Notes under the pieces: generated by a model
Seen by the model: only the letters and a program-made list of their open reading frames with translations
Database searches by the model: none
What the model was told of the DNA's origin: nothing
Shown here: in pieces, positions 1,758 to 24,332 of the stretch
Layout of the letters: each line of letters starts with the position of its first letter
How positions within the stretch are numbered: position 1 is the first letter of the stretch
Program-made: the position numbers and the translations under genes
Source of the DNA: Candidatus Omnitrophota bacterium
GTDB taxonomy: Bacteria; Omnitrophota; Gorgyraeia; JAFGGP01
DNA: 26,231 nt
Assembly: GCA_016930485.1 (NCBI GenBank)
Contig: JAFGGP010000027.1
Span: forward strand, 1 to 26,231
Direction of reading: 5' to 3'

Positions 1758-1780
1758 TGATTTCATTAAGCCTTTAGCCA

Positions 1781-1829
1781 TCAGCCCTCAGCTGCTGACA
1801 GCTGATAGCTGAGCGCTGAAAGCTTGAAA
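1781..1829. repeat. heptanucleotide tandem repeat (about 7 units, core CTGA-N-AG x4) with an embedded perfect hairpin at 1788-1805
   Basis: The units read TCAGCCC TCAGCTG CTGACAG CTGATAG CTGAGCG CTGAAAG CTTGAAA. TCAGCTG-CTGA-CAGCTGA forms a 7-bp stem with a 4-nt loop. It lies between the protease stop and the methyltransferase RBS. Confidence 0.6.
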
Positions 1830-1837
1830 AAGGAGCA

Positions 1838-2521
1838 ATGGTTATGTTGTGGCGCAGGATAAAAAAGAACTACCGTCAGATGAAACGGCGGCTTTCGTGG
1901 TCCCTGTTTAGGAGACGGCACATTCTCAGCCGGCATCCCGAGGCCTTTATCAGGCTCAGGGCCCGGCAGGGTGATGTCAGGCTCCATCTGTGCTGCGGGA
2001 CGAAAAAGTATCCCGGTTACATAAACATCGATGTCGTTCCCCTGGAGGGGGCCGATATTATCATGAATATTCCGGACGACCTCGCCGCTATTCCTTCTGA
2101 ATGCGCCTCGGAGATTCTGATGGAGAGTGGATTTGAACACTTTTACCAGTACCAGCAGGACGATGTGCTCAGGGAGTGCCGCCGGATTTTAAAAGAGGAG
2201 GGGAGGCTTGTCCTGAAGTGGCTCCCCGACTTTGACTTGATCGTGGACAGATATGTCAGACACCGGGATAGAGGGGGCGCGGATAACACCTTTGATCTCT
2301 ATCAAGTTTACCGCTATACGCATGCAGAGCCGACACCCGAAAATTCCCCGCACCAGCTGCACAAGGATATCTTTACCAAAGATTCGGTGAGAAAGCTCCT
2401 TGAACGGAACGGATTTTATATAGAGAAGTTATCCAATGAGATATTTCAGGGAGAGACATATTCGGTAGGCATGAACATTATCGCGGTGAAACCGAGCACT
2501 GCCACGAGAGGAGGTGTGTGA
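1838..2521 (+). CDS. class I SAM-dependent methyltransferase (Methyltransf_11/23-like)
   Basis: Motif I variant LHLCCGTKKYPGYINID followed by an acidic loop (IIMNIPDD) and RLVLK. SD AAGGAG is upstream. The TGA stop overlaps the ATG of the next gene. Confidence 0.7.
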   Translation: MVMLWRRIKKNYRQMKRRLSWSLFRRRHILSRHPEAFIRLRARQGDVRLHLCCGTKKYPGYINIDVVPLEGADIIMNIPDDLAAIPSECASEILMESGFEHFYQYQQDDVLRECRRILKEEGRLVLKWLPDFDLIVDRYVRHRDRGGADNTFDLYQVYRYTHAEPTPENSPHQLHKDIFTKDSVRKLLERNGFYIEKLSNEIFQGETYSVGMNIIAVKPSTATRGGV

Positions 2522-3409
2522 TGTACATGAATCTTGTGTGGTCCATTATCGCGTTTGTAGTAGGGATTTCTCTGATTGTGATCAAGATGGCCCACCACGA
2601 CTATAACAAGACTACCAATCTTGTTGGTATCGGCGTTCTCCTTTTGGCGCTGCTGCTTTTTATATCGAGCTTTATCAGGATTGTGCCCGCCGGTACGGTT
2701 GGTGTGGTTGATCTCTTTGGCAGGGTGAGTGACGCGGAGAGGACACCCGGGCTCAATCTGGTCAATCCCTTTGCCAAGCTGGTGATTATGAACGTCAAGA
2801 CAGAAGAGATCAAAGAGACTATGAATGTCCCTTCCTAGGAAGGTCTTTCGATCAGCCTCGAGGTTTCTATTTTGCATAAGCTGAGTCCGGAGATGGCGAG
2901 CGATATTTACAAGAACGTGGGCGTCTATTACAGAAATATTGTTATTACTCCCCAGTTTCGCTCTGTCTGCAGGGGGGGTAACGGTCAATTATGAAGCAAA
3001 ATCACTTTACACATCAAGCAGGGAAGAGATCGCTAGGAAGATTTATGACGATTTAGAAGGTATGCTGAAAGAGCGCGGTATCATTCTGGAAACAGCACTT
3101 CTTCGCGCGATCACGCTGCCGCCGACCGTTGCCAAGGCCATCGAGATGAAGCTCAAGGCCGAGCAAGAGGCAGAGCAGATGAGATTTGTGCTCGAGAAAG
3201 AAAAAAAAGAGGCCGAGCGTAGGGTTATCGAGGCCGAAGGCATTGCCAAGGCACAGGAGATTATCAATAAGACGCTGACCGCTCCGTACCTTCAGCATGA
3301 GGCGATTCAGGCACAGATGAAGATGGCCGACAGTCCGAACCACACTACCGTCTATATCCCGGTCGGCACCAACGGCATTCCGCTCGTGCGGACTGTGGAA
3401 AACCAGTAA
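2521..3409 (+). pseudogene. SPFH / band-7 (prohibitin/stomatin/HflK-like) gene disrupted by an in-frame TAG (2836-2838) and a +1 frameshift in a G7 run (2972-2978)
   Basis: The SPFH-like sequence is continuous across three pieces. Piece 1, frame 1: IVPAGTVGVVDLFGRV...NVKTEEIKETMNVPS. Piece 2, same frame after the TAG: EGLSISLEVSILHKLSPEMASDIYKNVGVYYRNIVITPQFRSVCRGG. Piece 3, frame 2 after the G-run: VTVNYEAKSLYTSSREEIARKIYDDL...AEQEAEQ...TVYIP. Its ATG is translationally coupled to the upstream gene by the gaggaggtgtgtgATGa overlap. Confidence 0.75.
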
Positions 3410-3465
3410 GGACGCGACAGGTCAGACACCCCGCCCTTTTTTCCAGGACGAGAGAGGCAGGTGTA

Positions 3466-4824
3466 ATGCGCAGAGGGACGCACCCCGGAAGGTTCAGATT
3501 TCTGAAAGAGGGGACGGGTGGTGCGGGTCCGGTTGTCTACTGGATGAGCCGGGACCAGCGCTCGCGCGACAACTGGGCGCTTCTCTATGCCCAGGAAGAG
3601 GCATTGCGGCGGGAGAGGCCGCTTGTGGTTATCTTTTGTCTGGTGCCCTCTTTTTTAGGGGCGACTATCCGCCAGTACGGATTTATGCTAAAGGCCCTGG
3701 AGGAACTTTCCGGCGCACTCGAAAAAAAACATATACCGTTTTTTTTACTGCGGGGGGAACCTGCCGAGGAAGTCATCCGTTTTGTAGAAGAAAACGGGGC
3801 AGCACTCCTGGTGACGGATTTTGACCCGCTCAGGATCAAAATAGGATGGAGAAACGCGATCTCTTCCCGCATTTCCATTCCCTTTGTCGAGGTGGATGCC
3901 CATAATATTGTGCCCTGCTGGCTTGCCTCGCCAAAACAGGAGTTTGGTGCGTATACTATCAGGCCGAAGATACACAGGGCGCTTGATGAGTTTCTCGATG
4001 ATTTCCCGCCCCTTAAAAAACATCCTGTTTCGTATAAGAGGAGGCCACGCACAATCTTCCGGCCCGGCCTACTATCCTCTTTAAGGATCAACCGGTATGT
4101 CCCCGAGGTAAAGTGGCTCGTGCCGGGTGAGAAGGCAGCCCACCAGGTCCTCAGGGTCTTTCTGAAAACAAAACTTTCCTCATACAGCACCCGCCGTAAT
4201 GACCCGACACAGGACGGGACTTCGTTTCTCTCTCCTTATCTCCACTTTGGACACATAGCGGCCCAGCGGGTGGCGTTGGAGGCGCTTAAAGCGCGGCGCG
4301 CACCTCAGGCAGAGAAGGAGGCCTTTCTTGAGGAGCTGATTGTTCGCCGCGAGCTTTCCGACAACTTCTGTTTTTATAACAGACACTATGACACGGTTAA
4401 GGGGTTTCCCGATTGGGCAAAGAAGACGCTTGCCCCTCACCGGAGGGACAGGCGGAAATATATGTATTCGCTGAAGACGCTTGAGGCGGCACAGACCCAT
4501 GACGAACTCTGGAACGCGGCCCAGACACAGATGGTTGCGACCGGCAGGATGCACGGATATATGCGGATGTACTGGGCCAAAAAAATTCTCGAATGGACAC
4601 CGACTCCGGAGGCGGCCATGAAAAGTGCCATATATCTTAATGACACCTATGAACTCGATGGCAGGGATCCTAATGGATATACGGGGATCGCATGGTCGAT
4701 AGGGGGGGTACATGACCGCGCGTGGGGCGAGCGCCCCGTATTTGGCAAAATACGCTATATGAGCTCTAATGGCTGCAAGGCAAAGTTTGATATAGAGAGA
4801 TATGTCAATCAGCAGAAGGGTTAA
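3466..4824 (+). CDS. phr: deoxyribodipyrimidine photolyase, class II CPD photolyase
   Basis: [12 protein letters not shown]...DNWALL...IRQY.FML..L.EL...L....IPFFLLRG.P......FV.E.....LVTDF.PLRIK..W......I.SIPF.EVDAHN.VPCW.AS.K.E..A.T.RPK. The match to class II photolyases is near-colinear. The C-terminal FAD-binding region is present. Confidence 0.92.
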
Positions 4825-4826
4825 AA

Positions 4827-5360
4827 ATGGGGCAAAATGCCATACGCACCCCTCTCATTTCTATTATCCTTGCTGTATGCATAGGAGGTATTATGTTAAA
4901 GGGCGCATTCGGTGAGGACCAGTATCAGAAACCTTCCGACGAGGATCTTAAAAAGGGGTTGACTCCCATGCAATATTGCGTGACGCAAGAAAGCGGCACC
5001 GAGAAACCCTTTGATAATGACTACTGGGACAACAAGCGAGAGGGGATTTATGTCGATGTCATATCAGGAGAGCCGCTTTTTAGCTCGCAGGATACATTTC
5101 AGTCAGGGACCGGGTGGCCCAGTTTTACCAGGCCACTTGACCCTGATAATATTGTGGAAAAGGAAGACCATAGTCTTTTTGCTGTGCGCACCGAGGTAAG
5201 AAGCAGGCAGGCGGACTCGCACCTCGGCCACGTGTTTCAGGACGGCCCAAAACCGACAGGCCTCAGATATTGCATTAATTCTGCGGCCCTCAGGTTTATC
5301 CCGAGAGAAGACCTTGAAAAGGAAGGATACGGCGCGTATAAGAAGTTATTTGAAGAATAA
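4827..5360 (+). CDS. msrB: peptide-methionine (R)-S-oxide reductase MsrB (SelR domain) with an N-terminal signal or anchor segment
   Basis: GTGWPSF and the catalytic RYCINSAAL motif. N-terminal hydrophobic stretch [15 protein letters not shown]. No CxxC zinc pairs. Confidence 0.85.
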
Positions 5361-5389
5361 CGTGTGGCTCATTTGGCTAAGGAGGAGGC

Positions 5390-6346
5390 GTGACGAATAC
5401 AAAACCTAAGGTTGCCATTATCGGTGCCGGGAACGTGGGCAGCACCTTTGCCTTTGCGCTGCTTACAAGCGGCCTGGCACGCGAGATCGTTATCGTTGAC
5501 CGTGATGGAAAAAAGGCCCAGGGCGAATGCATGGATCTTAATCACGGGCTGAGTTTTACCCATCCGTCCCAGGTTTATGCGGCAGGCTTTGAAGGCTGCG
5601 CCGATTCGGATATCGTAATAATTACAGCCGGCGCCAGACAGAAGGAAGGTCAGACACGCACCGATCTTGTGCAGGCGAATGCGGAGATTTTTAAATTGAT
5701 CATTCCTCAAATCATTTCCTATGCGCCGGAGGCCATTCTGCTGGTGGTGACCAACCCGGTAGATATTCTTACTTACATTACCCTTAAGATATCGGGATTT
5801 CCGAAAAGACGGGTGATCGGCTCAGGCACAGTGCTGGATTCTTCGCGGTTTCGCTATCTGATAAGCGAGCACTGTCACGTGGACCCGAGAAACGTGCACG
5901 CGTATATCATCGGCGAGCACGGCGATACCGAACTTCCGGTCTGGAGCAATGCCAATATCGGCGGCATGAAGATAGAGCAGTTTTGCCCGACCTGCAAAGA
6001 ATTCGATAGCTGCCGGCGCACGAAGGCGTTGAAGCGAATATTCGATGAGGTGAAAAACGCGGCCTATAAGATTATCGAGGCCAAAGGGGCGACGTATTAT
6101 GCCGTTGCCCTGGCCCTGGTCAAGATCACCGAGGCGATCCTGCGTGATCAAAACTCTGTCCTGCCGGTCTCGACCCTGATCAGCGACTATTACGGGATAG
6201 ATGATGTGTGTCTTGGCCTGCCGTCGATTGTCAACCGGAACGGGGTAGAACAATTCCTGCGCCTTGCGCTTTCCGATGAGGAAGAGAAGCGGCTGCGGCA
6301 TTCGGCAGAGACGCTTAAGGATATCATCAGGCGCATCATCTTGTAA
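5390..6346 (+). CDS. ldh: L-lactate dehydrogenase (LDH/MDH superfamily; Gln at the substrate-discriminating position)
   Basis: GTG start after SD AGGAGGAGG. Rossmann fold VAIIGAGNVGS. ITAGARQKEGQTRTDL carries Q, not R, at the LDH/MDH-discriminating position. Catalytic IGEHGD is present. Confidence 0.85.
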   Translation: MTNTKPKVAIIGAGNVGSTFAFALLTSGLAREIVIVDRDGKKAQGECMDLNHGLSFTHPSQVYAAGFEGCADSDIVIITAGARQKEGQTRTDLVQANAEIFKLIIPQIISYAPEAILLVVTNPVDILTYITLKISGFPKRRVIGSGTVLDSSRFRYLISEHCHVDPRNVHAYIIGEHGDTELPVWSNANIGGMKIEQFCPTCKEFDSCRRTKALKRIFDEVKNAAYKIIEAKGATYYAVALALVKITEAILRDQNSVLPVSTLISDYYGIDDVCLGLPSIVNRNGVEQFLRLALSDEEEKRLRHSAETLKDIIRRIIL

Positions 6347-6380
6347 CATAAGGACGGCGAGGCCCCCGACTCTTGCTATA

Positions 6381-6417
6381 AAAAAAGCGGCTTATAAAAA
6401 GCCGCTTTTTGTTTTTT
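6381..6417. terminator. bidirectional Rho-independent terminator between convergent ldh and pfk
   Basis: AAAAAAGCGGCTT-ATAAAA-AGCCGCTTTTTGTTTTTT. A GC-rich stem is flanked by an A-run upstream and a T-run downstream. Confidence 0.8.
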
Positions 6418-6435
6418 ACTATCCGCCACAATTTA

Positions 6436-7641
6436 CTACATATACCGTTCTACGCTGCCGGTTACCTCTTCAAAGACCGGTTTTATTTCCTGTTTTTCTC
6501 TACCGAAGCAGACCCCCATATTTTCAAAGAGGGCTATTGAGGATATATCGACAAAGCGCTGTTCGATCGCCTTTTTGGTATTTATGTATCGTATTTTGTC
6601 CCGGTCGATTCCCGCGACGGTGACGCCGGTGACGCCTTTTATCAGGAGAAGAACCGCCGCCGCGCCGGCCTCTTTTCCGAAGTTGACATCATAGGCGGAT
6701 GAGTGCCCGCTCCTGACCAGGTGGCCTGGTTGTACCGACCTTACCTCCGGAATTTCGTAAAGAGCCGGGACAAAGAGTCCTGTCTTTTTCATAAGTTCTT
6801 TTACCTCAGGGTCAGCCTTAAAACGCTTTGAGAGCTCCTGACACACGTATTTTCCGGCACCGGCAAGCTTTTTGTGCCCAAAGGCGTCAACGCCCGCCGA
6901 TTCGTCATAGAGTTCTGAGCCGTCGGCATTTTTTATTCCCTCTGCCACGATGATCAGATAGGTGCCTGCGTGCACATCGCTGCCCTCGATGCGCCTGAAG
7001 TACCTGTTTTTTGCGTGCCGGTAGAGGATATCGAAGTTAATCGGGACTTCGGGGATGAGGACGGCATCGGCGTCCGCGGCGATGCCGCCCCTAAAGGCCG
7101 TGTGGCCGGCATAGCGACCGAATACCTCAAGGACGATGATCCGGTTATGCGTCCGTCCGGTGGTCTTCAGGTCCTCCGCGAAGGCGGCAATCCGGTTAAT
7201 GGTGGAGTCGCCGCCCACAGAGTAGGTCTGAAGGTCAAGGTCCATCGTCTTGGGGGCGTGGATGCAGCGGATGCCCTGCTCGGAGAGGTCGACCATCACA
7301 CTGCCGGTGTCATCACCCCCGCTGATAATCAGTCCGTCGATGTCAAATTTTTTAAGGCCCGCCTTAATGCGCTCATATTTTTTGTCGTCGTTGATCTTTT
7401 TGATCTTCACGCGGGAGTGCCCTGCCTCAGAACCGGCAAGGTTTGCCCCGATCGAATCGACACGCTGGGGGGTAAGCTCTACAAGGTGCTCAAAGTCAAG
7501 GAGATTGTACAGCCCTGCGTAGCCGTTGGGTATGACAAAGCAGGAAATGCCTTTTTTGTGGGCCAGCTGTGCCGCCCCTTTTATGACTGCATTTAAACCG
7601 CCGCAATCGCCACCGCTTGTAATAATACCTATCTTTTTCAT
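6436..7641 (-). CDS. pfk: 6-phosphofructokinase, PFK-A family, long form with PPi-type signature residues
   Basis: MKKIGIITSGGDCGGLNAV. GGDDTGS has Asp at the E. coli Gly104 equivalent. HAPKTMDLD has Lys at the Gly124 equivalent and keeps the catalytic Asp. The SD lies on the minus strand (aaggagtgttttATG). Confidence 0.85.
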   Translation of the reverse strand: MKKIGIITSGGDCGGLNAVIKGAAQLAHKKGISCFVIPNGYAGLYNLLDFEHLVELTPQRVDSIGANLAGSEAGHSRVKIKKINDDKKYERIKAGLKKFDIDGLIISGGDDTGSVMVDLSEQGIRCIHAPKTMDLDLQTYSVGGDSTINRIAAFAEDLKTTGRTHNRIIVLEVFGRYAGHTAFRGGIAADADAVLIPEVPINFDILYRHAKNRYFRRIEGSDVHAGTYLIIVAEGIKNADGSELYDESAGVDAFGHKKLAGAGKYVCQELSKRFKADPEVKELMKKTGLFVPALYEIPEVRSVQPGHLVRSGHSSAYDVNFGKEAGAAAVLLLIKGVTGVTVAGIDRDKIRYINTKKAIEQRFVDISSIALFENMGVCFGREKQEIKPVFEEVTGSVERYM

Positions 7642-7961
7642 AAAACACTCCTTTTTCTATTCGAGGTTCGAAACTCGTATTTTTTCGCAACATCAATGTT
7701 TTTACGAGCATCGAGTATAGACAGCCGGGCGTCGAAAAACCATACTTTATTATTAGCATCCTACTTTATCATAAAGCACGGAAAAATCAACCTTGAATTT
7801 CGATCTTTTTCCCTGAATGCAAGCAGATCGGCAAGCTCTAAAAAACGCTTCCATTCAAGCTCACATTACTGTTATAATAATTAACCTATTCTTATCTTAT
7901 TATACAATGCAACCCCTCCACAGTCAGACAATTCGAAGCTAAGATACGAAAGGACATTCAG
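7642..7961. promoter_or_regulatory. AT-rich divergent promoter region between pfk (-) and the 864-aa gene (+)
   Basis: 320-bp noncoding AT-rich interval. A candidate -10 TATAAT lies at 7873-7878 but has no clean -35. SD AAAGGA precedes the ATG at 7962. Confidence 0.3.
7662..7677. promoter_or_regulatory. 16-bp near-perfect palindrome CGAGGTTCGAAACTCG in the pfk 5' UTR, about 20-35 nt upstream of its start
   Basis: 14 of 16 positions are self-complementary. The centre is TTCGAA. Candidate operator. Confidence 0.3.
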
Positions 7962-10556
7962 ATGATTAGCACAGGCATACCAGGTTTAGATACAGTTCTT
8001 ACGGGTTTAAAACTGGGGGACAATGTAGTCTGGCAGATAGACGATATACAGGACTACATTGATCTCGTGGAGCCTTTTGCCGAGCAAACGCTCAAGGAAA
8101 ATAAACGTCTTGTCTATATGAGATTTGCCTCACACCAGGAGATGTTGAAACCTTCAGAAAACATTCAGCGATATGAACTGGATGCATTTGAAGGATTTGA
8201 ATCTTTTGCCACAAAGGTGAACAATATTATTACCGAAGAAGGCGAAGGCGTATATTATGTCTTTGATTGTCTTTCAGAACTGCTTTCTGCCTGGGCAACC
8301 GACCTTATGATAGGCAACTTTTTTGTGGTAACCTGTCCGTATCTCTTCGAACTAGGTACAGTCACGTATTTTTCGATCTTCCGGACAAATCATTCTTTTA
8401 AATCCATAGCGCGCATTCGTGAGACAACTCAGTTATTACTGGATGCGTACCGGTGCGAAGGCCATTTTTATATTCATCCTTTAAAAGTATGGAAACGTTA
8501 TTCACCCACCATGTTTCTTCCTCATCAAAAAGAAGGCGACGTATTTGTCCCTATTACCGATAGCGTTAATGCCGTGAAACTCCTTTCATATATGCGTGAG
8601 AAAGGGGCAGAAAGCGCAAAGAGGAATCTGGACTACTGGGATCGTCTGTTTCTTGAGGCTGAAGAGCTGCTTGATGACAAGGCCAATAAAAAGCAAGTTA
8701 ACGACATGAAAGAAAAGCTTTGCAGTCTCATGATTGGTAAGAGTGAAAAAATCCTCGATTTAGCACAGCAGCACTGTTCACTTGTAGAGCTTTTAGAGAT
8801 CAAATCCCGATTGATAGGAACAGGATATATCGGTGGCAAGAGTGTAGGTATGCTTTTGGCAAGAAAGATTCTTTCAAAGAGCAAGTTGCTCGATTGGCAG
8901 AATCTTTCAGAGCCGCACGACTCTTTTTACATTGGGTCTGACATATTCTATTCCTACATGGTGCAGAATCAATTGTGGAAGCTCCGCATGCAGCAGAAGA
9001 CAGAAGACGGGTATTTTAGCGTAGCAAAAGATATCCAAGAGAAGATACTCGCCGGGACATTCCCTGAGGAGATTATGGAGCACTTCCACCAGATTATAGA
9101 GTATTTTGGTATGTCTCCTATAATCATTCGCTCCAGTTCGCTTCTGGAAGATGGCTTTGGAAATGCGTTTGCCGGAAAATATGAAAGCGTGTTTCTGGCT
9201 AATCAGGGAAATCCTGAACGTCGGTACAAGGAATTTGCCGCGGCTGTAAAAAAGATTTACGCAAGCACTATGAGTGAAAATGCGCTGGTATACAGAAAAA
9301 AGAGAGGTCTTGATAAGATGGATGAGCAGATGGCTCTTCTGGTGCAGCGTGTTTCAGGATCGCATAACGGTAACTATTTCTTTCCTGATCTGGCGGGAGT
9401 GGGTGTATCGCATAACATTTATATGTGGAATGAAAGCATGGATCCAAAAACAGGTATGCTGCGTTTGGTATTTGGGCTGGGCACAAGGGCGGTCGATCGC
9501 GTCGAGGGCGACTATCCACGAATGGTGGCGCTCGATAATCCTCTGCAAAGGCCATATGCACAGAAGAGCGACCTGCGCAAATTTTCACAGCATAAGGTAG
9601 ACGTTATAAACATACAAGACAATGAATTTCAAGTTATTCCTTTCGAGGAGCTGATACGCCAAAAAGCCTATGAAGACATACATCGTGTTGCTATCAAAGA
9701 CGATGAGGCTATAGGCATGATGAGCCGCTCGGGCAGAGAAGACAGGGAATACTGGATTTTGACACTGGATAAGGTGTTTAAAGACGACGCATTCGCGGAG
9801 GCCTTTACAAACATATTGCGGACACTCGAAGATAGCTATAATTATCCTGTGGAAATAGAGTTCACCGTCAATTTTACCGGCCAGGACACTTTTAAAATAA
9901 ACGTCCTTCAGTGTAGACCGCTTCAGGCACGAGGACACCGACCAAGGGTTGAAATGCCTAAGGATGTCAAAAAAGAAGACACGCTTTTTGAATCATACGG
10001 CTATTTTCTTGGCGGCAATGTTCTTCAGGAGATCAAGAGAGTGATTTATGTTGATCCGGAAGAATACATCAGGCTCATATTGCCGGATAAATATGAAATT
10101 GCCCGTATTGTAGGCAGACTGAATGCATCCATAGAGGACAGAGAGAAGATGCCTACTCTTCTTATGGGGCCTGGCAGGTGGGGTACAACAACACCGTCCT
10201 TAGGCGTGCCGGTCAGCTTTTCCGAGATAAACAATGTAGCAGCTCTTGCAGAGATTGCTTTTCCGGCCGGCAATCTTATGCCTGAATTATCCTTTGGAAC
10301 GCATTTTTTCCAAGACTTGGTTGAGACCAATATTTTCTACGTTGCACTATTCCCTGATAAGGAAGATGTTATTTATGACAATTCATTATTCAAGAAAGAG
10401 CTGAATCTGCTTCCAGAGTTTCTGCCTCAATCTATCAGATACCAGAATGTTGTTGGTATGTATGATGTAGGGACTAAGGGGTTGAAGATTATATCAGACG
10501 TTATCTCCCAGAAGATTATCTGTTTTTCAGGTGCAAAGAAGACATCCAATCGATAA
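7962..10556 (+). CDS. multidomain protein: N-terminal KaiC/RadA-like RecA-fold domain lacking a Walker A, central PPDK_N / PEP-synthase-type nucleotide-binding domain, and a C-terminal region of about 220 aa of unknown function
   Basis: N-terminus: MISTGIPGLDTVLTGLKLGDNVVWQIDD shows the KaiC entry motif but no GxxxxGK[ST]. VYYVFDCLSE is Walker-B-like. Middle: IGGKSVGMLLARKI, IIRSSSLLEDGFGNAFAGKYESVFL and ALLVQRVSG fit the PPDK_N family. I found no GGxxSHAAI phospho-His motif. Confidence 0.7.
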   Translation: MISTGIPGLDTVLTGLKLGDNVVWQIDDIQDYIDLVEPFAEQTLKENKRLVYMRFASHQEMLKPSENIQRYELDAFEGFESFATKVNNIITEEGEGVYYVFDCLSELLSAWATDLMIGNFFVVTCPYLFELGTVTYFSIFRTNHSFKSIARIRETTQLLLDAYRCEGHFYIHPLKVWKRYSPTMFLPHQKEGDVFVPITDSVNAVKLLSYMREKGAESAKRNLDYWDRLFLEAEELLDDKANKKQVNDMKEKLCSLMIGKSEKILDLAQQHCSLVELLEIKSRLIGTGYIGGKSVGMLLARKILSKSKLLDWQNLSEPHDSFYIGSDIFYSYMVQNQLWKLRMQQKTEDGYFSVAKDIQEKILAGTFPEEIMEHFHQIIEYFGMSPIIIRSSSLLEDGFGNAFAGKYESVFLANQGNPERRYKEFAAAVKKIYASTMSENALVYRKKRGLDKMDEQMALLVQRVSGSHNGNYFFPDLAGVGVSHNIYMWNESMDPKTGMLRLVFGLGTRAVDRVEGDYPRMVALDNPLQRPYAQKSDLRKFSQHKVDVINIQDNEFQVIPFEELIRQKAYEDIHRVAIKDDEAIGMMSRSGREDREYWILTLDKVFKDDAFAEAFTNILRTLEDSYNYPVEIEFTVNFTGQDTFKINVLQCRPLQARGHRPRVEMPKDVKKEDTLFESYGYFLGGNVLQEIKRVIYVDPEEYIRLILPDKYEIARIVGRLNASIEDREKMPTLLMGPGRWGTTTPSLGVPVSFSEINNVAALAEIAFPAGNLMPELSFGTHFFQDLVETNIFYVALFPDKEDVIYDNSLFKKELNLLPEFLPQSIRYQNVVGMYDVGTKGLKIISDVISQKIICFSGAKKTSNR

Positions 10557-10598
10557 CAGTTGTATTATTTTTTTACCTTTAACCGAGGGAGGTGGATT

Positions 10599-11567
10599 AT
10601 GGCCGAAGTTGCGGAAATTAAATCGGTAGACCTGAACCCTCAGGAGTTTATCGAGACGCAGATAGCCGACATCGCGAGGCTGGTAGGGGGCGGCACGGCG
10701 ATTAACGCGCTATCCGGCGGGGTTGATTCTTCTGTGGTGACAATGCTGGGTCATAGGGCGCTGGGCGATAGCCTGAAGACATACTTTATAGATAATGGCA
10801 TTATGAGAGAGGGTGAGCCCCAGCGGATAGTGAATCTGTTTAAGGGGTTGGGCGTTACGGTTGAGATAGTGGACGCCAAAGAGAAATTTTTCAATGCGTT
10901 AAAGGGCATCACCGATCCTGAAGAAAAAAGAGAGGCGATCACCCAGACATTCTACAAGGATGTCTTCGGTCGCCTGGTGCGGGCGAGCGGAGCAAGGTAT
11001 TTGCTCCAGGGAACAATCCTTACGGATATCGATGAGACCGTAGCCGGCATTAAAAGACAGCACAATGTCTTTGAGCAGCTGGGTATCAATCCTGAGGCAG
11101 CCTTTGGTTACAAGATTATCGAACCGGTAGTGCAGCTGCGTAAAGACGGGGTAAGAAAAGTAGCAAAGGTCCTCGGCCTGCCCGAGTCGATATATAACCG
11201 CATGCCGTTTCCCGGGCCGGCACTTTCGGCACGTGTTATCGGCGAGGCAACCCCGGAGCGAATAGCCCTGGTAAGGGCGGCTACCCGGATTGTCGAAGAA
11301 GAGCTCAGGTCTACGGGGGCGTTCCAGTATATGGCCATCCTTCATCAGGACAGGGTAACGGGGATGCGTGACGGCAAGAGGGATTTTGGTCTTCAGATAG
11401 AGATACGGTGCTGGGACAGCGTTGATGCCCGCCTGGCGGCGCCAACGAGGCTGCCTTACGAGATACTGGATGCCCTTGCCAGGCGGATTATAGCAGAGGT
11501 GGCGGGTGTGGCGAGTGTTACGTACAATATAACAACGAAACCGCCTTCAACCATGGAGGCGGTATAG
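10599..11567 (+). CDS. guaA: GMP synthase ATP-pyrophosphatase subunit (GuaA subunit-B type: PP-loop domain plus C-terminal dimerisation/XMP domain), standalone
   Basis: PP-loop ALSGGVDSSV. HNVFEQLG. MPFPGPALSARVIGE. C-terminal VTYNITTKPPSTMEAV resembles the canonical GuaA end ...KPPATIEWE. SD GGGAGGTGG precedes the ATG at 10599. No glutamine amidotransferase domain is adjacent. Confidence 0.8.
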   Translation: MAEVAEIKSVDLNPQEFIETQIADIARLVGGGTAINALSGGVDSSVVTMLGHRALGDSLKTYFIDNGIMREGEPQRIVNLFKGLGVTVEIVDAKEKFFNALKGITDPEEKREAITQTFYKDVFGRLVRASGARYLLQGTILTDIDETVAGIKRQHNVFEQLGINPEAAFGYKIIEPVVQLRKDGVRKVAKVLGLPESIYNRMPFPGPALSARVIGEATPERIALVRAATRIVEEELRSTGAFQYMAILHQDRVTGMRDGKRDFGLQIEIRCWDSVDARLAAPTRLPYEILDALARRIIAEVAGVASVTYNITTKPPSTMEAV

Positions 11568-11688: not shown

Positions 11689-11742
11689 TGCAATAAGAAA
11701 AAGTGAATATCATAGCAGATACAGAGCGGAGGCTTGGTGATT

Positions 11743-13110
11743 ATGGACGACAAAAAGGTGTATTTAAGTGAACGGGATATCCCGCGCCAGTGGTATAACC
11801 TGGCGGCGGATCTGCCGACTTCTCCGAGGCCTCCTCTGGGTGCTGACGGCAGACCGATTACACCGGATATGTTATCGGCGGTTTTTCCAATGAATTTAAT
11901 AGAGCAGGAGGTGAGCACCAAGCGCTGGATCGACATACCCGAGGAGGTGCTTGAGATTCTGTACCGCTGGCGGCCGTCCCCCCTGAGGCGTGCGGTGTAC
12001 TTAGAGCGACATTTAAAGACGCCGGCGCGCATTTACTACAAAGACGAAAGTCTCAGTCCTCCCGGCAGCCACAAACCAAATACCGCGGTCGCCCAGGCAT
12101 GGTATAACAAACAATTCGGGATAAAGAGGCTGACGACGGAGACAGGGGCCGGGCAGTGGGGCAGCGCACTTGCTTTTGCCTGCAACCTGATAGGTCTTGA
12201 GTGTAAGGTGTATATGGTCAGGATCAGCTTTGATCAGAAGCCGCTCAGAAAAAGTATGATGCGGATATGGGGCGGCACGTGCGTGGCCAGTCCGAGCGAC
12301 CAGACAGAGTTCGGAAGAAGGATATTGCGGGAAATGCCTGATACGCCCGGCAGTCTGGGAATAGCGATCAGCGAGGCCATAGAAGAGGCGGTGAGCGATG
12401 CCTCCGGAAAAACGCGCTACTCACTCGGCAGCGTGCTCAATCACGTAATGCTGCACCAGACGATTATCGGGCTTGAGGCCCAAAAACAACTCGCACTCAT
12501 AAACGAAAAACAGCCCGATATTATTATCGGCTGCGCTGGCGGGGGAAGCAATTTCGCGGGGCTTGCCTTTCCCTTTGTGAACGACAAAATAAACGGGGCA
12601 CATATTACTATTATACCTACCGAGCCGACGGCCTGTCCGACTCTGACAAAGGGGCCGTTTGCCTATGACTTTGGCGATACCGCCTGCCAGACTCCGCTTC
12701 TTGCGATGTTTACCCTGGGACACGGTTTTGTCCCGCCCCCGATACATGCGGGAGGGCTGAGGTATCACGGTATGGCCCCTCTGGTGAGCCATGCGGTCAG
12801 GGAGGGTTTGCTCGAGCCGCGTTCCTATGACCAGATCAGATGTTATGAAGCGGCTCTCACATGGGCGCGGACAGAGGGTTTCATATGTGCCCCTGAGACA
12901 AGCCATGCGGTTGCCTGTGTTATCGATGAGGCGAACAGGGCTAAAAAAGAGGGCAGAGAAAAGGTTATTTTAATGAATTACAGCGGTCACGGGCTTATGG
13001 ATCTTGCGGGTTATAACAAATTTCTCGACGGGGAATTGACAGAGTATCATTTGCCGGAGGAGGAATTGCGAAGATCTCTGGCGGCCATCAAAGATTTGCC
13101 AAAGCCGTAG
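11743..13110 (+). CDS. trpB2: tryptophan synthase beta-subunit paralog TrpB2 (PLP-dependent, indole-scavenging type)
   Basis: Length about 455 aa with an N-terminal extension. PLP lysine context [26 protein letters not shown] glycine-rich loop. Alternative in-frame starts exist at GTG 11737 and TTG 11734 after SD GGAGG. No trpA is adjacent. Confidence 0.85.
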
Positions 13111-13669: not shown

Positions 13670-15397
13670 ATGCACTATCTTAATGAACAAAACATTTTTC
13701 TTTTTTTAGTACAGCTGGCGATACTGCTTGCACTGACGAGGAGCCTCGGTGAAGTCTTTCGCAGGTGCAAACAGCCGCCCTTGACCGCCGAGCTTCTGGT
13801 GGGCATTATGCTGGGGCCTACCATTCTGGGGCGTCTCTTGCCGCAATGGCACCGGCTGGTATTCCCGGTCGATCCTATTCAGCAGAATATGCTCGAGACG
13901 GTTGCCTGGATAGGTGTGTTATTTCTTCTGCTTGAAACAGGCCTGGAGGTTGACTTTTCTGCCGCGTGGCGCCAGAGGGGAGACGCCCTCACGATCGCCT
14001 TGTGGGACATTATTATCCCTATGGCGGTCGCCTTTATTCCTTGTTTTCTTCTGCCAGCCCATTATTTAGTGGACCCTGATCACAGACTCATTTTTTCCCT
14101 TTTTATGGCAACGGCCATGACGATAAGTGCCATGCCAATAGCGGCAAGGGCGCTGCATGACCTGAAACTTTCAAAGACAGACCTGGGTTTTCTCATAATG
14201 TCCGCCCTCTCTGTAAACGATATTATCGGGTGGCTCCTTTTTACGGTTGTCCTCGGCTTTTTTACCCAGTCACATATTTCCATTTCCACTGTGACGGTGA
14301 TTATCGGGGCCAGCATCGGCTTTGCCTTTTTATGCTTAACACTCGGGCGCGCATTCGCCAATAGTGTGATCTTCAAGATAAAAGAAAAACAAATGCCCCA
14401 GCCGGGCACCTCATTGACATTTATCTGCCTTCTTGGCCTGGTCTGTGGGGCCATTACCCAGAAAATAGGCATACACGCCTTATTCGGTTTTTTTATCGCC
14501 GGTGTTATGGCAGGCGGGGCCAGAGAGCTCTCCGAAAGGACCCGCCAGATTATCGCTCAGATGGTATACGCCTTATTTGTCCCGGTTTTCTTCGCTGGAA
14601 TAGGGCTTAAGATAGATTTTTTGCGTAACTTTGACGTTTTTCTTATTGTGTTGATAAGTGTTATCGGCATCCTTGGCAGATTTTTCGGCGCTTGGTTTGG
14701 GACGGGTTTTACCAGTATTTCAAAGGAGAATCGCATTCCGATCGCGATAGCCCACACCCCTGGCGGAGCAATGGAGATAGTAGTGGGCATGCTCGCTCTG
14801 GAATATAATTTAATTACCGAGCCTGTCTTTGTGGCTATCGTATTCGGGGCGGTTATTTCATCGGTGATTATGGGACCATGGCTTAATTATTCCATTAAAA
14901 AACGAAAAGAGGTCAGCGTACTGGAGTATTTCTCGCGCAGGGACGTTATTCATTTGAGGTCGAGCTCGCGAGACAAGGCAATTGGGGAGCTTTGCGAACT
15001 CGCGGCGGAGCATGAGGATATGCCCGGGCTCGATGTGCTGTATTCCGCGGTCCTTGACCGCGAGAACACTATGGGCACGGCACTTGAGGAGGGCATAGCC
15101 GTACCGCACTCACGCCTGCCGAATATCAAAAGACCGGTTATTGTGTTCGGAAGGTCTTTTTCAGGCATAGACTGGAATTCTCCGGATGGAAAACCGGCGC
15201 GGCTGGTTTTTTTAATCTTGACCCCGCAGGATGAGGATATGACGCAGCTGCAGATACTGCGCTTTATCGCCGTCACCATGAGTGACCCAGGGAAGAGGAA
15301 AAGGCTGCTTGAGGCGCATGAGAGCGGGGAGATATGGGACGAGCTGAGAAAGATATTTACACCCCATTTTATCGTTAAAGAAAAGAAGAAGGAGTAG
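13670..15397 (+). CDS. CPA2-family monovalent cation:proton antiporter (Kef/NhaP-like, about 11 TM) fused to a C-terminal PTS EIIA type-2 (PtsN/fructose-type) domain
   Basis: N-terminal LAILLALTRSLGEVFRRCKQPPLTAELLVGIMLGPTILG is a typical CPA2 start. The C-terminal roughly 150 aa read IHLRSSSRDKAIGELCEL...GTALEEGIAVPHSRL..PVIVFGRS..GIDW. This is an EIIA-2 fold with the phosphorylatable His in the IAVPH motif. Confidence 0.8.
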   Translation: MHYLNEQNIFLFLVQLAILLALTRSLGEVFRRCKQPPLTAELLVGIMLGPTILGRLLPQWHRLVFPVDPIQQNMLETVAWIGVLFLLLETGLEVDFSAAWRQRGDALTIALWDIIIPMAVAFIPCFLLPAHYLVDPDHRLIFSLFMATAMTISAMPIAARALHDLKLSKTDLGFLIMSALSVNDIIGWLLFTVVLGFFTQSHISISTVTVIIGASIGFAFLCLTLGRAFANSVIFKIKEKQMPQPGTSLTFICLLGLVCGAITQKIGIHALFGFFIAGVMAGGARELSERTRQIIAQMVYALFVPVFFAGIGLKIDFLRNFDVFLIVLISVIGILGRFFGAWFGTGFTSISKENRIPIAIAHTPGGAMEIVVGMLALEYNLITEPVFVAIVFGAVISSVIMGPWLNYSIKKRKEVSVLEYFSRRDVIHLRSSSRDKAIGELCELAAEHEDMPGLDVLYSAVLDRENTMGTALEEGIAVPHSRLPNIKRPVIVFGRSFSGIDWNSPDGKPARLVFLILTPQDEDMTQLQILRFIAVTMSDPGKRKRLLEAHESGEIWDELRKIFTPHFIVKEKKKE

Positions 15398-15650: not shown

Positions 15651-16961
15651 ATGAAAGCAAATGTTCCGCGCCGGGAGGACTTGGAGAGTTTATCCATTGC
15701 AAGGGTGGGGGAGCCGACCATCGAGTCTCCCTTGAAACTGAGGGGCAACCTGTTTACCGATGATTCCGACCGGGTTGTCGTGCATGCCGACTCGGATACT
15801 ATCGGCGCCTCTCTCAAAGAGGGTGAGATGCCTCCCATGTTTGAGGCGGCTGGTCCCCGCAAGAAGATTTTTTTTGACCCGGCTAGCCTGACCTGCGGTA
15901 TTGTAACCTGCGGCGGACTGTGCCCCGGCCTCAACGACGTGGTGCGCTCAATCACATTAACCCTGCTTTTGCAGTACGGGGTTAAAAAGGTCCTGGGGTT
16001 CCGGTATGGATATGGAGGGCTTTCGGCAAACGCGGATCACCCGCCTATGGAGCTGACACCCGATGTGGTTGACGGGATTCAACATAAGGGCGGGACCATC
16101 CTCGGCACGAGCCGTGGGATGCAGGAACCGGCCGAGATGGTCGAAACCCTCCTTGAGTATGACGTCAGGATTCTTTTTGTCGTCGGCGGTGACGGCACAT
16201 TTAAGGGGGCGCACCGGATTGCCGCCGAAATCAAGAAACGAGGTCTAACGATAGCGGTGGTAGGAGTTCCCAAGACGATCGATAACGACATCTACGGGTC
16301 GGAGAGCAGTTTCGGGTTTGGCACCGCCGTGGACAAGGCGAGAGAGGCTATAGCCTCTGCGCACGAAGAGGCCCGTGCCGCATTTAACGGAATCGGTCTG
16401 GTTAAGGTGATGGGGCGCGACTCCGGATTTATCGCCGCCTGCTCGTCACTCGCGAACAGTGACGTAAATTTCTGCCTTATCCCCGAGTCACCCTTTAGGC
16501 TTGAGGGAGACGACGGATTGCTCCGCAGGATAGAGACGAGACTGGCACGCAAGCACCATGCGGTTATTGTCGCCGCTGAAGGGGCCGGGCAGGGGCTCCT
16601 TAAGGAAACCCATCAAAAGGATGCAGCAGGAAACGTCATCTATGCCGATATCGGTCTTTTCCTTAAGGGAGCTATTTCGGAATACCTTTCACAGAAGAAT
16701 ATATCCTTTACTATTAAATACATCGACCCGAGTTATACCATCCGCAGCTGTCCTGCCAATGCGCGCGATTCCATCTTTTGTCTGCTTCTGGCCGAGATGG
16801 CCGTGCATGCGGGAATGGCAGGGAAAACAGACATGTTTGTCGGCTACTGGAATCAGCATTTTACCAATATGCCACTGAGTTTTGCGGTCAATAAAAGAAA
16901 GAAACTCGATACAAATGGTCCTCTCTGGCAGACGTTACTTGCGATTACCAGCGAAAAATAA
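15651..16961 (+). CDS. pfk: 6-phosphofructokinase paralog, PFK-A family (mixed ATP-type and PPi-type signature residues)
   Basis: TCGGLCPGLNDV. GGDGTF has Gly at the position-104 equivalent. GVPKTIDNDI has Lys at the position-124 equivalent. Length about 436 aa, as in actinobacterial and PPi-related PFKs. Confidence 0.85.
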   Translation: MKANVPRREDLESLSIARVGEPTIESPLKLRGNLFTDDSDRVVVHADSDTIGASLKEGEMPPMFEAAGPRKKIFFDPASLTCGIVTCGGLCPGLNDVVRSITLTLLLQYGVKKVLGFRYGYGGLSANADHPPMELTPDVVDGIQHKGGTILGTSRGMQEPAEMVETLLEYDVRILFVVGGDGTFKGAHRIAAEIKKRGLTIAVVGVPKTIDNDIYGSESSFGFGTAVDKAREAIASAHEEARAAFNGIGLVKVMGRDSGFIAACSSLANSDVNFCLIPESPFRLEGDDGLLRRIETRLARKHHAVIVAAEGAGQGLLKETHQKDAAGNVIYADIGLFLKGAISEYLSQKNISFTIKYIDPSYTIRSCPANARDSIFCLLLAEMAVHAGMAGKTDMFVGYWNQHFTNMPLSFAVNKRKKLDTNGPLWQTLLAITSEK

Positions 16962-17029: not shown

Positions 17030-18769
17030 ATGAAGCGAAGAGCAGTTTTAACATCCTGTTTAGGTATATGCCTGATACTGAGCCCCCTTTCCTGCTCTTA
17101 CCGGACCGCCGGGGTCACGCAACCGATGATTCCTGTATGTGAGAATCTTCATGTCTCCGGGGATATAGAGTATCCCGCCTCACCGTGCAGTTCCCTTATC
17201 AAGGGTGCACTCGAAAACAGAACCCATTACGTTACCGTGCTTGATAACGGCGATGATGCCCTCCTTGCCCGGGCACACCTTATCAGGAACGCACAACAGA
17301 CTATTCTCATACAGACTTTTATTTGGGGGGCCGATGAATCGGGTCGTTTCCTTTTCTCTGAGCTCATTCAGGCTGCAAAACGGGGAGTCAAGGTCAGGAT
17401 TCTTATTGATGCCCTTGGCCTGCCTGCCGAGCCGCGTCTCATTGCGTTTTTAACCGCTGTCCATCCGAACATCGAGATTAAATTTTATAATCCGGTTTCC
17501 GATAAAGTTATCTCTTCCAAGCTGGCGTTACTCAAAAAGGCCAGCCTTGATTTCAGCGGCCTCAATCAACGGATGCATAATAAGATATTTGTTGTCGATG
17601 ACCGGTTTGGGATTACCGGAGGGCGCAATTACGAAAACGATTATTTTGACCGGGGGAGAAAACGGAATTTCAGAGACTGCGATGTGTTGGTAATAGGGCC
17701 TGTTGTCAGAGATATGACAGATTCGTTTATGGAGTACTGGTCGTTTGATTTATCCGTACCGAGCGGGGATATGCTCGATGTCAGGACCTTGATTGAACGG
17801 GGGGAGTATACAGAGTACTCCTCGAAAGAGAGCTTTGAACTCGGGAGGTTTTTTGGAGAACTCGAGAGGCGTGCATCGGATACCAGTTCTATACAGAGAC
17901 TGCTTGTCGACCCGAGCCACGGGGCAGGACACGTTTCCTTCATTGCCGATCACCCCGGCAAGAGGGAGCGCATCGGAAAGAGGCAGATCGCGCGGACAAC
18001 ATACGAGTTAGGCCGGTTCCTTTTGCGGGCTGAAAAGTCTCTGGTTGTGCAGACACCCTATCTGGTGGTAGACAAGAAGAATGCGAGGTATTTTAAAAAA
18101 CTGGCGAGGAGCAAACCTGATCTGGAATGCCTGATATCCAGCAACAGCCTTGCGTCGGCCGACCATGTCCATGCCTATGCCTTTTCCTTTAAAAATAAAA
18201 AGAAGTATCTCAAGGATTTTCGCTGGCAGATCTTTGAATTAAGACCGGACCCGAAGGACGCCGATCTGATGATCACGCCGGTTAATAAAGAAGAGAGGGT
18301 TGGGGGCTATATTACCTGCATTCATGCCAAGACCTACGTGGTTGACGGCCAGGCGGTGTGGGTGGGGTCATTCAACCTTGACCCGCGGTCAGCCAATCTC
18401 AATACAGAGGCTGGATTAATCATCGATGATGAAGGGGTGGCACAGGCAATAGAGAAGAATATCCGCAGGGATATGGCTCATCAGAATAGCTGGACTATAG
18501 GCAGGCGTCCAAAGGTACCGGTAGTATCCCGGTTCAGCAGACCCTTGGGGAATATAATCAGGGCTATCCCGGTTGTCGATGTATGGCCTTTTACCTATTC
18601 CGGATGCTTTGAGTTAAAAGAAGGCAGGGCCGTCGTGCCGTTTTACCATGAAGATTTTTATGGAAACTACCGGTATGTCGGACCGTTTCCTGGGGTTATG
18701 CTCAGTGAAAAAGAGATAAAAGCACGGCTTATCAAGGCATTTTTGGGCCCTGCAGAGCCGTTGATATAA
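17030..18769 (+). CDS. secreted or lipid-anchored phospholipase D-superfamily enzyme with two HKD motifs (ClsB/ClsC-like cardiolipin synthase or phospholipase D)
   Basis: Signal peptide MKRRAVLTSCLGICLILSPLSCS. HKD-1 is HNKIFVVDDRFGITGGRNYENDYF. HKD-2 is HAKTYVVDGQAVWVGSFNLDPRS. Confidence 0.8.
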   Translation: MKRRAVLTSCLGICLILSPLSCSYRTAGVTQPMIPVCENLHVSGDIEYPASPCSSLIKGALENRTHYVTVLDNGDDALLARAHLIRNAQQTILIQTFIWGADESGRFLFSELIQAAKRGVKVRILIDALGLPAEPRLIAFLTAVHPNIEIKFYNPVSDKVISSKLALLKKASLDFSGLNQRMHNKIFVVDDRFGITGGRNYENDYFDRGRKRNFRDCDVLVIGPVVRDMTDSFMEYWSFDLSVPSGDMLDVRTLIERGEYTEYSSKESFELGRFFGELERRASDTSSIQRLLVDPSHGAGHVSFIADHPGKRERIGKRQIARTTYELGRFLLRAEKSLVVQTPYLVVDKKNARYFKKLARSKPDLECLISSNSLASADHVHAYAFSFKNKKKYLKDFRWQIFELRPDPKDADLMITPVNKEERVGGYITCIHAKTYVVDGQAVWVGSFNLDPRSANLNTEAGLIIDDEGVAQAIEKNIRRDMAHQNSWTIGRRPKVPVVSRFSRPLGNIIRAIPVVDVWPFTYSGCFELKEGRAVVPFYHEDFYGNYRYVGPFPGVMLSEKEIKARLIKAFLGPAEPLI

Positions 18770-23492: not shown

Positions 23493-24332
23493 ATGAAAAA
23501 AATTATCCACATGAGCGATTTGCATATCGGCTATAAAGATTTTAAATACCGGTTTATGTCCATTATCCACGATTTACGGTCAAAAGTACCGAGTGGACCG
23601 TCTCAATACATAATCGTTATTACGGGAGACCTCGTCAATGACGCGAATAAAAAGGGAAGTTGCGGCGATGCCCTGCGGGGTTTGAACCGCCTCAAACGGT
23701 CGGGCTTTAAGCATATTCTGGTGGTGCCGGGCAATCATGATTATGGCACGGGCAACAAAGGCAATAAGAAATTCGTCGCGTCGTTTAAAAAGACTTTTTA
23801 CAGATCAGATCTTGAGTACCCCAAGCTGGATATCATTAACAGGATTGCCTTTATCGGTTTGGATTCGATGGCCGAGGAACTCCACTGGTATGATGATCTC
23901 TGGGCTCAGGGGGAGCTGGGGAAGAAGCAGTTGGACAGATTGGAAGAGATTCTAAATCTGAAAAAGGTGCAGAGGTGCAATAAGAGGGTTGTCTATCTGC
24001 ATCACCATCCTTTTAAGTGGCGCCCGCTGCATCAGCTTAAAGACGCCGGAAAACTGAAGAAAGTCCTCACAAAAGCCATGCAGAAGGGCATTTCGATAGA
24101 TGCGATTCTTTTTGGCCACAATCATGAAGGCGATGCGCATAACGGAACATGGGGCATTCCGCGCTGCTACGATGCCGGAACGGCCACGTTAAAACCCAGG
24201 TCTAAATACGTCAGTTGGGCAACCTGGTTTAAAGTCCAATCCTCGACCCGTGTCATAGATCTCAATCAGGACCCGGCCAAGGATTATCGGGTGACGTATA
24301 CCTATCAGGAGAAGTTACAGGAAGAACCATGA
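23493..24332 (+). CDS. calcineurin-like metallophosphoesterase
   Basis: Metal-ligand motifs SDLHIG, TGDLVND, VPGNHDY, LHHHP and GHNHEGD. SD GGGAGAG upstream. The stop overlaps the cls ATG (ATGA). Confidence 0.8.
   Translation: MKKIIHMSDLHIGYKDFKYRFMSIIHDLRSKVPSGPSQYIIVITGDLVNDANKKGSCGDALRGLNRLKRSGFKHILVVPGNHDYGTGNKGNKKFVASFKKTFYRSDLEYPKLDIINRIAFIGLDSMAEELHWYDDLWAQGELGKKQLDRLEEILNLKKVQRCNKRVVYLHHHPFKWRPLHQLKDAGKLKKVLTKAMQKGISIDAILFGHNHEGDAHNGTWGIPRCYDAGTATLKPRSKYVSWATWFKVQSSTRVIDLNQDPAKDYRVTYTYQEKLQEEP

Follow-up and report, generated by a model that had tools for sequence, protein, structure and literature searches.

What role does a free-standing ATP-pyrophosphatase (ATPPase) subunit of guanosine monophosphate (GMP) synthase play in a bacterial genome, and from where would it obtain its nitrogen? 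This question is raised by an intact open reading frame (ORF) at 10599-11567 (+ strand, 322 codons followed by a stop) of a contig from a Candidatus Omnitrophota bacterium (JAFGGP010000027.1, assembly GCA_016930485.1), the whole analysed stretch of which (26,231 nucleotides) is called the window here. According to the standard account, GMP synthase is a two-domain enzyme in bacteria, while the split form is archaeal (PMC10526850). From the evidence given below, it is probable that the gene product is the organism's GMP synthase ATPPase, of the archaeal subunit-B type (GuaAB) and of a subclass with a Gln-His lid. Most likely, it does ordinary housekeeping work, albeit in a split form that is unusual.

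The start was placed at ATG 10599, because close homologues (320-322 aa) align with the protein from residue 1. This alignment rules out the in-frame TTG at 10560 as a start, and the Shine-Dalgarno-like GAGGGAGGTGG also favours the ATG, ahead of which the predicted ribosome-binding site is graded strong. Since conservation across 87 homologues reaches at least 98% at 118 of the 322 positions, the gene is not a chance ORF, and purifying selection acts throughout the family. GMP_synt_C (PF00958) was found at residues 241-320 with 69.6 bits (cut-off 27; model positions 12-91 of 92), a PP-loop region of the NAD_synthase type (PF02540) at residues 33-97 with 34.5 bits, and the NCBIfam model TIGR00884 (guaA_Cterm) aligned from end to end (model positions 1-308 of 310). 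The 322-aa protein gave no Pfam or NCBIfam match to a glutamine amidotransferase (GATase) domain (PF00117 or TIGR00888). In fact, its N-terminus extends only ~12-15 residues ahead of the ATPPase core, and its alignment to GuaA of the E. coli type begins at about residue 209 of those two-domain proteins.

The top matches by sequence in the PDB were PH1347 (4e-77) and MJ1131 (5e-71), followed by the bacterial two-domain enzymes (1e-53 to 1e-57). Identity amounted to 47% with PH1347, 44% with MJ1131 and ~38% with E. coli GuaA, where the sequences of PH1347 and MJ1131 had been rebuilt from printed alignments and lacked a few terminal residues. The AlphaFold2 model (predicted local distance difference test, pLDDT, 85.6; predicted template-modelling score, pTM, 0.85) was uncertain only in the lid loop (low pLDDT) and in the last six residues, which is to be expected because those parts are mobile in crystal structures. 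With Foldseek, the best PDB matches of this model were 2DPL/3A4I and 6JP9 (TM 0.84-0.88 on the target), compared to ~0.53 for LarE and other PP-loop folds. An identity as LarE, ThiI or NadE was rejected, as the matches were weak and partial (47 bits for the LarE-/ThiI-type matches).

Among characterised proteins, the nearest relatives are PH1347 (PDB 2DPL/3A4I) and MJ1131 (PDB 6JP9), both archaeal subunits B, which bears out the comparison with the archaeal split arrangement made in an earlier, sequence-only reading of the window. These subunits are of the same length class, consist of the same PP-loop core and dimerisation domain, use the same XMP (xanthosine monophosphate) and ATP ligands and are likewise free-standing without a GATase domain. 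They differ in their host (archaeal, versus bacterial for the present protein) and in several motifs, with IKSHHN, KDEVR, Arg294, PGPGL and IEFE being replaced by IKRQHN, KDGVR, Ser, PGPAL and MEAV in the Omnitrophota protein. The genes of PH1346 and PH1347 adjoin, unlike the situation in the ~80 loci of the present family, which have no linked GATase; such an adjacency of guaAA and guaAB is not universal among two-subunit enzymes. The bacterial two-domain GuaA (E. coli 1GPM, T. thermophilus 2YWC, A. baumannii 7SBC) has homologous ATPPase and dimerisation domains, and the same chemistry is expected, but it carries an N-terminal class-I GATase domain that the present protein lacks, and it is more distant than the archaeal subunits.

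Ligand residues were mapped by alignment from a review of GMP synthases (PMC10526850) and from the paper on the T. thermophilus XMP complex (PMC11448925), and their invariance was judged in 40 family members. As far as these alignments place them, all direct XMP and ATP ligands are conserved. SGGVDSS is invariant, and so are R111 (Mj R102, which contacts xanthine O6), Q243 (Tt Q424, which contacts the ribose), R261 (Mj R249, contributed by the partner chain) and the phosphate contacts K314 and E320 (Mj K302 and E308). The P205-G206-P207 segment is invariant too, R201 is invariant or nearly so, and M319, opposite the backbone of Mj I307, is nearly invariant (at least 90%). D143 and E146, which correspond to Pf D371 and E374 and are conserved in the family, match the DxxE(S/T) motif, of which the Asp and Glu catalyse adenyl-XMP formation (PMC10526850). 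In the lid, Lys, the second His and Asn are retained (K152, H155, N156), and so are K182, D183 (the first Asp, equivalent to Mj D167) and R186 in alpha12, the helix for GATase docking and ATP binding (PMC10526850). The sequence-only reading was therefore right about the SGGVDSS PP-loop (which aligns with that of PH1347, MJ1131 and E. coli GuaA) and about the lack of a class-I GATase domain, and the alignment of XMP-binding residues that it had proposed as a check found all direct XMP ligands in place. Its description of the XMP region as complete up to the terminal motif holds for these ligands and for KPPST (residues 314-318), but not for the final four residues, which are MEAV instead of IE(W/F)E, nor for the position of Mj Arg294 and the lid and alpha12 motifs, which differ.

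The strongest functional evidence available here is the placement of the gene at the end of a purine operon in relatives. Gene context was probed in 86 loci (~80 of them distinct), up to 10 kb to each side (~20 kb per genome). In locus L031, an Omnitrophota metagenome-assembled genome (MAG; 974-10969, + strand), the order on one strand is pyrG, carA, carB (N-terminal half), purS, purQ, purL, purF, the family gene and a DUF1846 gene, with all genes of this cluster scoring above their NCBIfam cut-offs, and in L009 (also Omnitrophota) it is purL, purF, the family gene and DUF1846. Furthermore, carB is located directly upstream on the same strand in ~10 Omnitrophota loci including that of Velamenicoccus (gaps mostly 15-40 nt), and hisF directly downstream in 6 archaeal loci. 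A probe for IMP dehydrogenase (E. coli GuaB) gave no match in the ~20 kb per genome of the family loci. The Supplementary Notes of a survey of Omnitrophota describe nucleotide biosynthesis as common across the phylum, and the survey tabulates K01951, for which every value shown is 1, so that the table appears to record presence and not copy number (PMC10066038). Conserved 'antisense ORFs' that came up in the clustering of neighbours were discarded as shadows of the family gene itself or of carB. As side observations, carB of L031 comprises the N-terminal half only (548 aa) and is apparently split or truncated, and the DUF1846/PRK13663 protein of unknown function that is encoded directly downstream of the family gene is 507 aa long in both loci (L009 3834-5357, L031 10994-12517).

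A number of observations weigh against the assignment as GMP synthase. The score for the equivalog TIGR00884 (299.5 bits) stays under the curated cut-off of 338.75, and that for NF000848 (273 bits) under a cut-off of 400. The lid reads IKRQHN throughout the family instead of the canonical IK(T/S)HHN (i.e. Ser/Thr to Arg and the first His to Gln), and alpha12 reads KDGVR instead of KD(D/E)V(K/R), with Gly replacing the second acidic residue, where both motifs have been described as invariant in GMP synthases (PMC10526850). Ser306 occupies, again family-wide, the position of Mj Arg294 and Pf R539, the Arg of the dimerisation domain that forms a salt bridge with the C-terminal Glu; in PfGMPS, R539L abolishes activity and H388A, affecting the first lid His, slows adduct formation (PMC10526850). 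Gly and Asp are reordered in the Arg249 loop (canonical G-x-x-G-D-x-R to G-M-R-D-G-K-R, uniform in the family). Less directly, members are named 'ExsB family transcriptional regulator', 'ATP-binding protein' or 'asparagine synthase-related' at NCBI, a literature search for a stand-alone bacterial GuaAB or GuaA-like paralogue found nothing relevant, and three GuaA-type GATase queries (E. coli, P. horikoshii and korarchaeal sequences, used with tblastn and blastp, the first two serving as probes only) found a partner GATase within 10 kb in 0 of the ~80 family loci. Other changes from the canonical sequence are PGPGL to PGPAL (uniform in the family), the IE(W/F)E terminus to (M/I)EA(V/I), and R270-C271-W272 in the dimerisation domain (nt 11406-11414), which is invariant in the family where canonical GMP synthases have R-(A/M/I)-V.

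The score under the TIGR00884 cut-off and the strict family-wide conservation of the motif departures, including Cys271-Trp272 that is absent from canonical GMP synthases, would fit a neofunctionalised paralogue, acting on another substrate than XMP or with another nucleophile (e.g. sulfur), with the true canonical guaA located elsewhere. The occurrence of the family in archaea of the ANME (anaerobic methanotrophic) and Methanosarcinales groups would fit as well: since the order Methanosarcinales normally has the canonical guaAA/guaAB pair, the archaeal copies would be extra, and they probably sit alongside these canonical genes. Nevertheless, such a paralogue is quite improbable, as all residues with a known contact to xanthine, ribose, phosphate or ATP are preserved, several genomes have the gene straight after purS-purQ-purL-purF or carB, it also occurs in small genomes of Omnitrophota and of the Candidate Phyla Radiation (CPR), where redundant paralogues are unlikely, and the matches of the LarE and ThiI type are as weak as given above. 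Should the same genomes turn out to hold a canonical guaA too, however, the gene would be a paralogue.

The departures themselves lose much of their force when the wider GMP synthase tree is considered (a rough neighbour-joining tree of 50%-identity representatives, without support values). The family falls in a clade whose members all carry Gln at the first lid His. Within this clade, Korarchaeia (Methanodesulfokora) and Micrarchaeota contribute proteins of 366-405 aa that read IKTQHN and KDQVR and vary at the Mj294 position. GuaAB of this korarchaeal, crenarchaeal and DPANN type (e.g. P0399 of Methanodesulfokora washburnensis) shares the Gln lid, the absence of the second alpha12 acid and the non-conserved Mj294 position with the present protein, to which it is ~40-46% identical, and differs in having an insertion of ~50-80 aa and in keeping PGPGL and an IE(F/Y)E terminus. 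In Methanodesulfokora, the gene of P0399 (locus L087) is followed after 5 nt by that of a 177-aa class-I GATase, i.e. a guaAB-guaAA pair. Because this similarly altered protein has an adjacent GATase, the altered lid, alpha12 and Mj294 position do not disqualify a protein as GMP synthase and are compatible even with a two-subunit enzyme that depends on glutamine. Because IKTQHN occurs in such a GuaAB, the real family is wider than the published 'invariant' motifs allow. Among fused GuaA proteins, the nearest representatives come from Thermoproteota/Bathyarchaeota, one actinobacterium and one Hydrogenibacillus, with Omnitrophota not among them.

The missing GATase neighbour is a property of the family and not peculiar to the source contig. 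No ORF of at least 120 aa in the 26-kb window encodes a class-I GATase domain, so the claim of the sequence-only reading that none is adjacent holds. With relatives in at least 574 species genomes (scanned at one genome per species) and ~80 loci that all lack a linked GATase, the gene is not a one-off orphan. The family is tight (72-83% identity): among the top 120 database clusters, identity is 75-83% and length 320-339 aa, and in a 50%-identity library one representative at 67% stands for the family, with the next full-length relatives at ~50%. Apart from carA in L031, the GATase probes matched only an orphan GATase of the PRK07053-like type, at 8 kb distance in the archaeal locus L076.

This consistent absence raises a more specific version of the GMP synthase reading, in which the GATase partner has been lost and adenyl-XMP is aminated obligately with free NH3/NH4+. 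The closest functional analogy, and no more than an analogy, is the NH3-dependent NadE without glutaminase domain, also a PP-loop ATP pyrophosphatase, in which adenylation of the substrate precedes the reaction with free ammonia; it has another substrate and another C-terminal domain, its similarity to the present protein being confined to residues 33-97 (34.5 bits). Beyond the family loci, a GuaA-type GATase was nearby in 0 of 3 loci of the nearest non-family bacterial relatives (~40-50% identity, including a Patescibacteria protein), whereas the korarchaeal sister type has an adjacent one, and a fused GATase form was found neither among the 240 closest matches listed nor among the 50%-identity representatives. 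Moreover, the family-specific changes sit on the elements that couple to the GATase (lid and alpha12), and isolated ATPPase subunits are able to use NH4+ in vitro (PMC10526850). On the other hand, most of the residues for docking and cross-talk remain in place (DxxET and, in KDGVR, the first Asp, i.e. Mj Asp167), and the korarchaeal enzyme with its adjacent GATase has lost the same second acid. In addition, most of the carB-linked loci have no carA next to carB (a full carB of 1076 aa in the phylum outside L031 likewise stands without an adjacent carA), which makes an unlinked GATase unremarkable in these genomes. The subunit genes are presumably unlinked in some archaea too (MJ1575 and MJ1131), which likewise counts against an obligate dependence on ammonia. 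Taken together, such a dependence is possible but doubtful.

A last alternative, that the protein is a non-enzymatic regulator, derives from the label 'ExsB family transcriptional regulator', a legacy name on many NCBI entries, which is all that speaks for it. QueC, a PP-loop enzyme, formerly went by the name ExsB, and Pfam gave no QueC match at E ≤0.001 in the 322-aa protein. No DNA-binding domain was detected by Pfam or NCBIfam in this protein, the catalytic PP-loop and active-site residues are complete and invariant, and the predicted fold is that of a GMP synthase ATPPase. The regulator reading is thereby effectively refuted by the domain content, and 'transcriptional regulator' is a legacy misnomer. 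The family is named 'GMP synthase' in a JGI source, and its inconsistent naming results from a score just under the curated GMP synthase threshold of NCBI.

Going by record titles of MAGs, of which the labels on short contigs may be wrong, the best 80 of the at least 574 loci comprise 46 from Omnitrophota (including Ca. Velamenicoccus archaeovorus), 13 from 'uncultured Planctomycetes', 11 from archaea (ANME-2c, Syntrophoarchaeum, other Methanosarcinales, 'Methanobacteriota' and Altiarchaeales) and 10 from other bacteria (Elusimicrobiota, Armatimonadetes, Poribacteria, Auribacterota, Zipacnadia, one CPR bacterium and others). Complete Omnitrophota genomes with the gene include CP070797.1 and NZ_CP019384.1, the latter being that of Ca. 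Velamenicoccus archaeovorus. At least the copy in L085 is truly archaeal, since the same locus encodes the small subunit of the archaeal DNA polymerase D. With the ANME-2c protein as query, ~10 archaeal clusters were listed among the matches, none of them from a cultured archaeon, followed by bacterial ones at 78% identity. The archaeal subclade (ANME-2c/Syntrophoarchaeum/Methanosarcinales: L085, L078, L076, L060, L079 and L020) is 75-78% identical to the Omnitrophota proteins and nests among them in the rough neighbour-joining tree, which suggests a transfer of the gene between bacteria and archaea. Some Omnitrophota (Velamenicoccus) have been reported as predators of methanogens of the order Methanosarcinales. 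A more elaborate scenario would be that of a glutaminase-free, ammonia-dependent GMP synthase that has its ancestry in the archaeal two-subunit enzyme, came to be the only GMP synthase in Omnitrophota as well as in several other anaerobic lineages, and later moved horizontally into ANME/Methanosarcinales; as a whole, this is tentative and rather unlikely.

Returning to the housekeeping GMP synthase that we favour for the source bacterium, XMP would be its substrate and GMP its product, and it would be the sole GMP synthase, i.e. without a second guaA in the genome. The enzyme would be dimeric, with ATP-Mg bound by the PP-loop and XMP sitting between the C-terminal loop and the core. O2 of XMP would be adenylated, after which nitrogen would displace AMP to yield GMP. 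The nitrogen may be delivered by a class-I GATase that is encoded elsewhere and docks transiently, as in M. jannaschii, or it may be free ammonia. Free ammonia is favoured by the fact that a GATase is consistently neither linked nor fused and by the known use of NH4+ by isolated ATPPase subunits in vitro, a partner encoded in trans by the retained GATase-docking residues and by the generally unlinked amidotransferase subunits in these genomes. Of the three options named in the sequence-only reading (free ammonia, a GATase in trans and a different substrate), the different substrate is the least supported, because the ligand residues are conserved and the gene is found in purS-purQ-purL-purF and carB contexts in relatives.

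The neighbours of the gene in the window (Table 1) are those named before, a PPDK_N protein (PF01326) upstream and TrpB2 (PRK12391) downstream, except that the 'pseudo-KaiC' N-terminus ascribed to the former was not confirmed by Pfam, which detected PPDK_N at residues 289-671 only. As the gap between the PPDK_N gene and the family gene is only 42 nt, their co-transcription is possible. The start of TrpB2 was taken as ATG 11744 (longest ORF 11734-13110), ~175 nt downstream of the GuaAB-like gene. Both neighbours were rejected as functional partners: among the family loci, the adjacency of TrpB2 was found by tblastn only in the source window, and PPDK_N recurs once, in L076. There, on a Methanosarcinales contig, a full-length homologue of the PPDK_N protein (6574-9315, +; 42% identity over 855 residues) is encoded at 5 kb from the archaeal family gene, beside the orphan PRK07053-like class-I GATase (9547-10257, -). 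Two co-occurrences are too few to call a link between PPDK_N and the family gene.

Table 1. Positions of the GuaAB-like gene, its motifs and its direct neighbours in the window
Feature	Position (nt)	Strand	Basis
PPDK_N-domain protein, 864 aa (context)	7962..10556	+	Pfam PF01326, 173.6 bits
Shine-Dalgarno-like GAGGGAGGTGG	10585..10595	+	Read from sequence; 3 nt 5' of ATG 10599
GuaAB-like ATP pyrophosphatase gene, GMP-synthase type, 'QHN' lid subclass	10599..11567 (including stop)	+	ORF, Pfam, NCBIfam, PDB matches, AlphaFold2 model
PP-loop SGGVDSS, residues 39-45, ATP pyrophosphate binding	10713..10733	+	Aligned with PH1347, MJ1131 and E. coli GuaA
alpha11 motif D143-I-D-E146-T147, i.e. DxxE(S/T), Pf Asp371/Glu374	11025..11039	+	Alignment
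Lid-loop motif IKRQHN, residues 151-156	11049..11066	+	Family-wide; canonical IK(T/S)HHN
alpha12 motif KDGVR, residues 182-186	11142..11156	+	Alignment; canonical KD(D/E)V(K/R)
GMP_synt_C dimerisation sub-domain, residues 241-320, with Q243, R261, R270-C271-W272 and S306	11319..11558	+	PF00958, alignments
C-terminal XMP-phosphate loop KPPSTMEAV (K314, M319, E320, V322)	11538..11564	+	Aligned to KPPATIE(F/W)E
TrpB-like pyridoxal-phosphate enzyme ('TrpB2') (context)	11744..13110	+	NCBIfam PRK12391, 694.5 bits

An Rfam scan of the window found no riboswitch or other RNA, and a scan for promoters and terminators stayed at background level. Elsewhere in the window, two genes of the phosphofructokinase family are located within 10 kb on opposite strands (6436-7641, -, 401 aa; 15651-16961, +, 436 aa). 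The product of 13670-15397 (+, 575 aa) is a membrane domain of a Na+/H+ exchanger fused to a C-terminal EIIA-2 domain of the phosphotransferase system, and that of 621-1757 (+, 378 aa) has a C-terminal aspartyl protease domain that is retropepsin-like (gag-polyprotein type). Two genes of the PLD family (cardiolipin-synthase-like; 17030-18769, +, and 24329-25783, +) have genes for a B12-binding radical SAM protein, a Mut7-C RNase, a GNAT protein and a PIG-L deacetylase between them.

The kind of enzyme is a known one; what is new is its widely conserved stand-alone form in bacteria, with an altered motif set and an apparent spread between domains, as well as its absence from the curated family models and from the searchable literature, in which no description was found. 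Contrary to the standard account, numerous species of a single bacterial phylum, along with scattered lineages outside it, have a free-standing ATPPase, and owing to its inconsistent naming, guanine nucleotide synthesis can appear incomplete in these genomes. Across the whole GMP synthase family, the positions of IK(T/S)HHN, KD(D/E)V(K/R) and Arg294, all described as invariant, do vary. If an unlinked guaAA exists, this would be an ordinary split guaA in bacteria. Allostery and ammonia channelling in GMP synthases have been worked out by mutagenesis, and if the dependence on ammonia is real, the family would offer a naturally uncoupled GMP synthase that is useful for the study of both.

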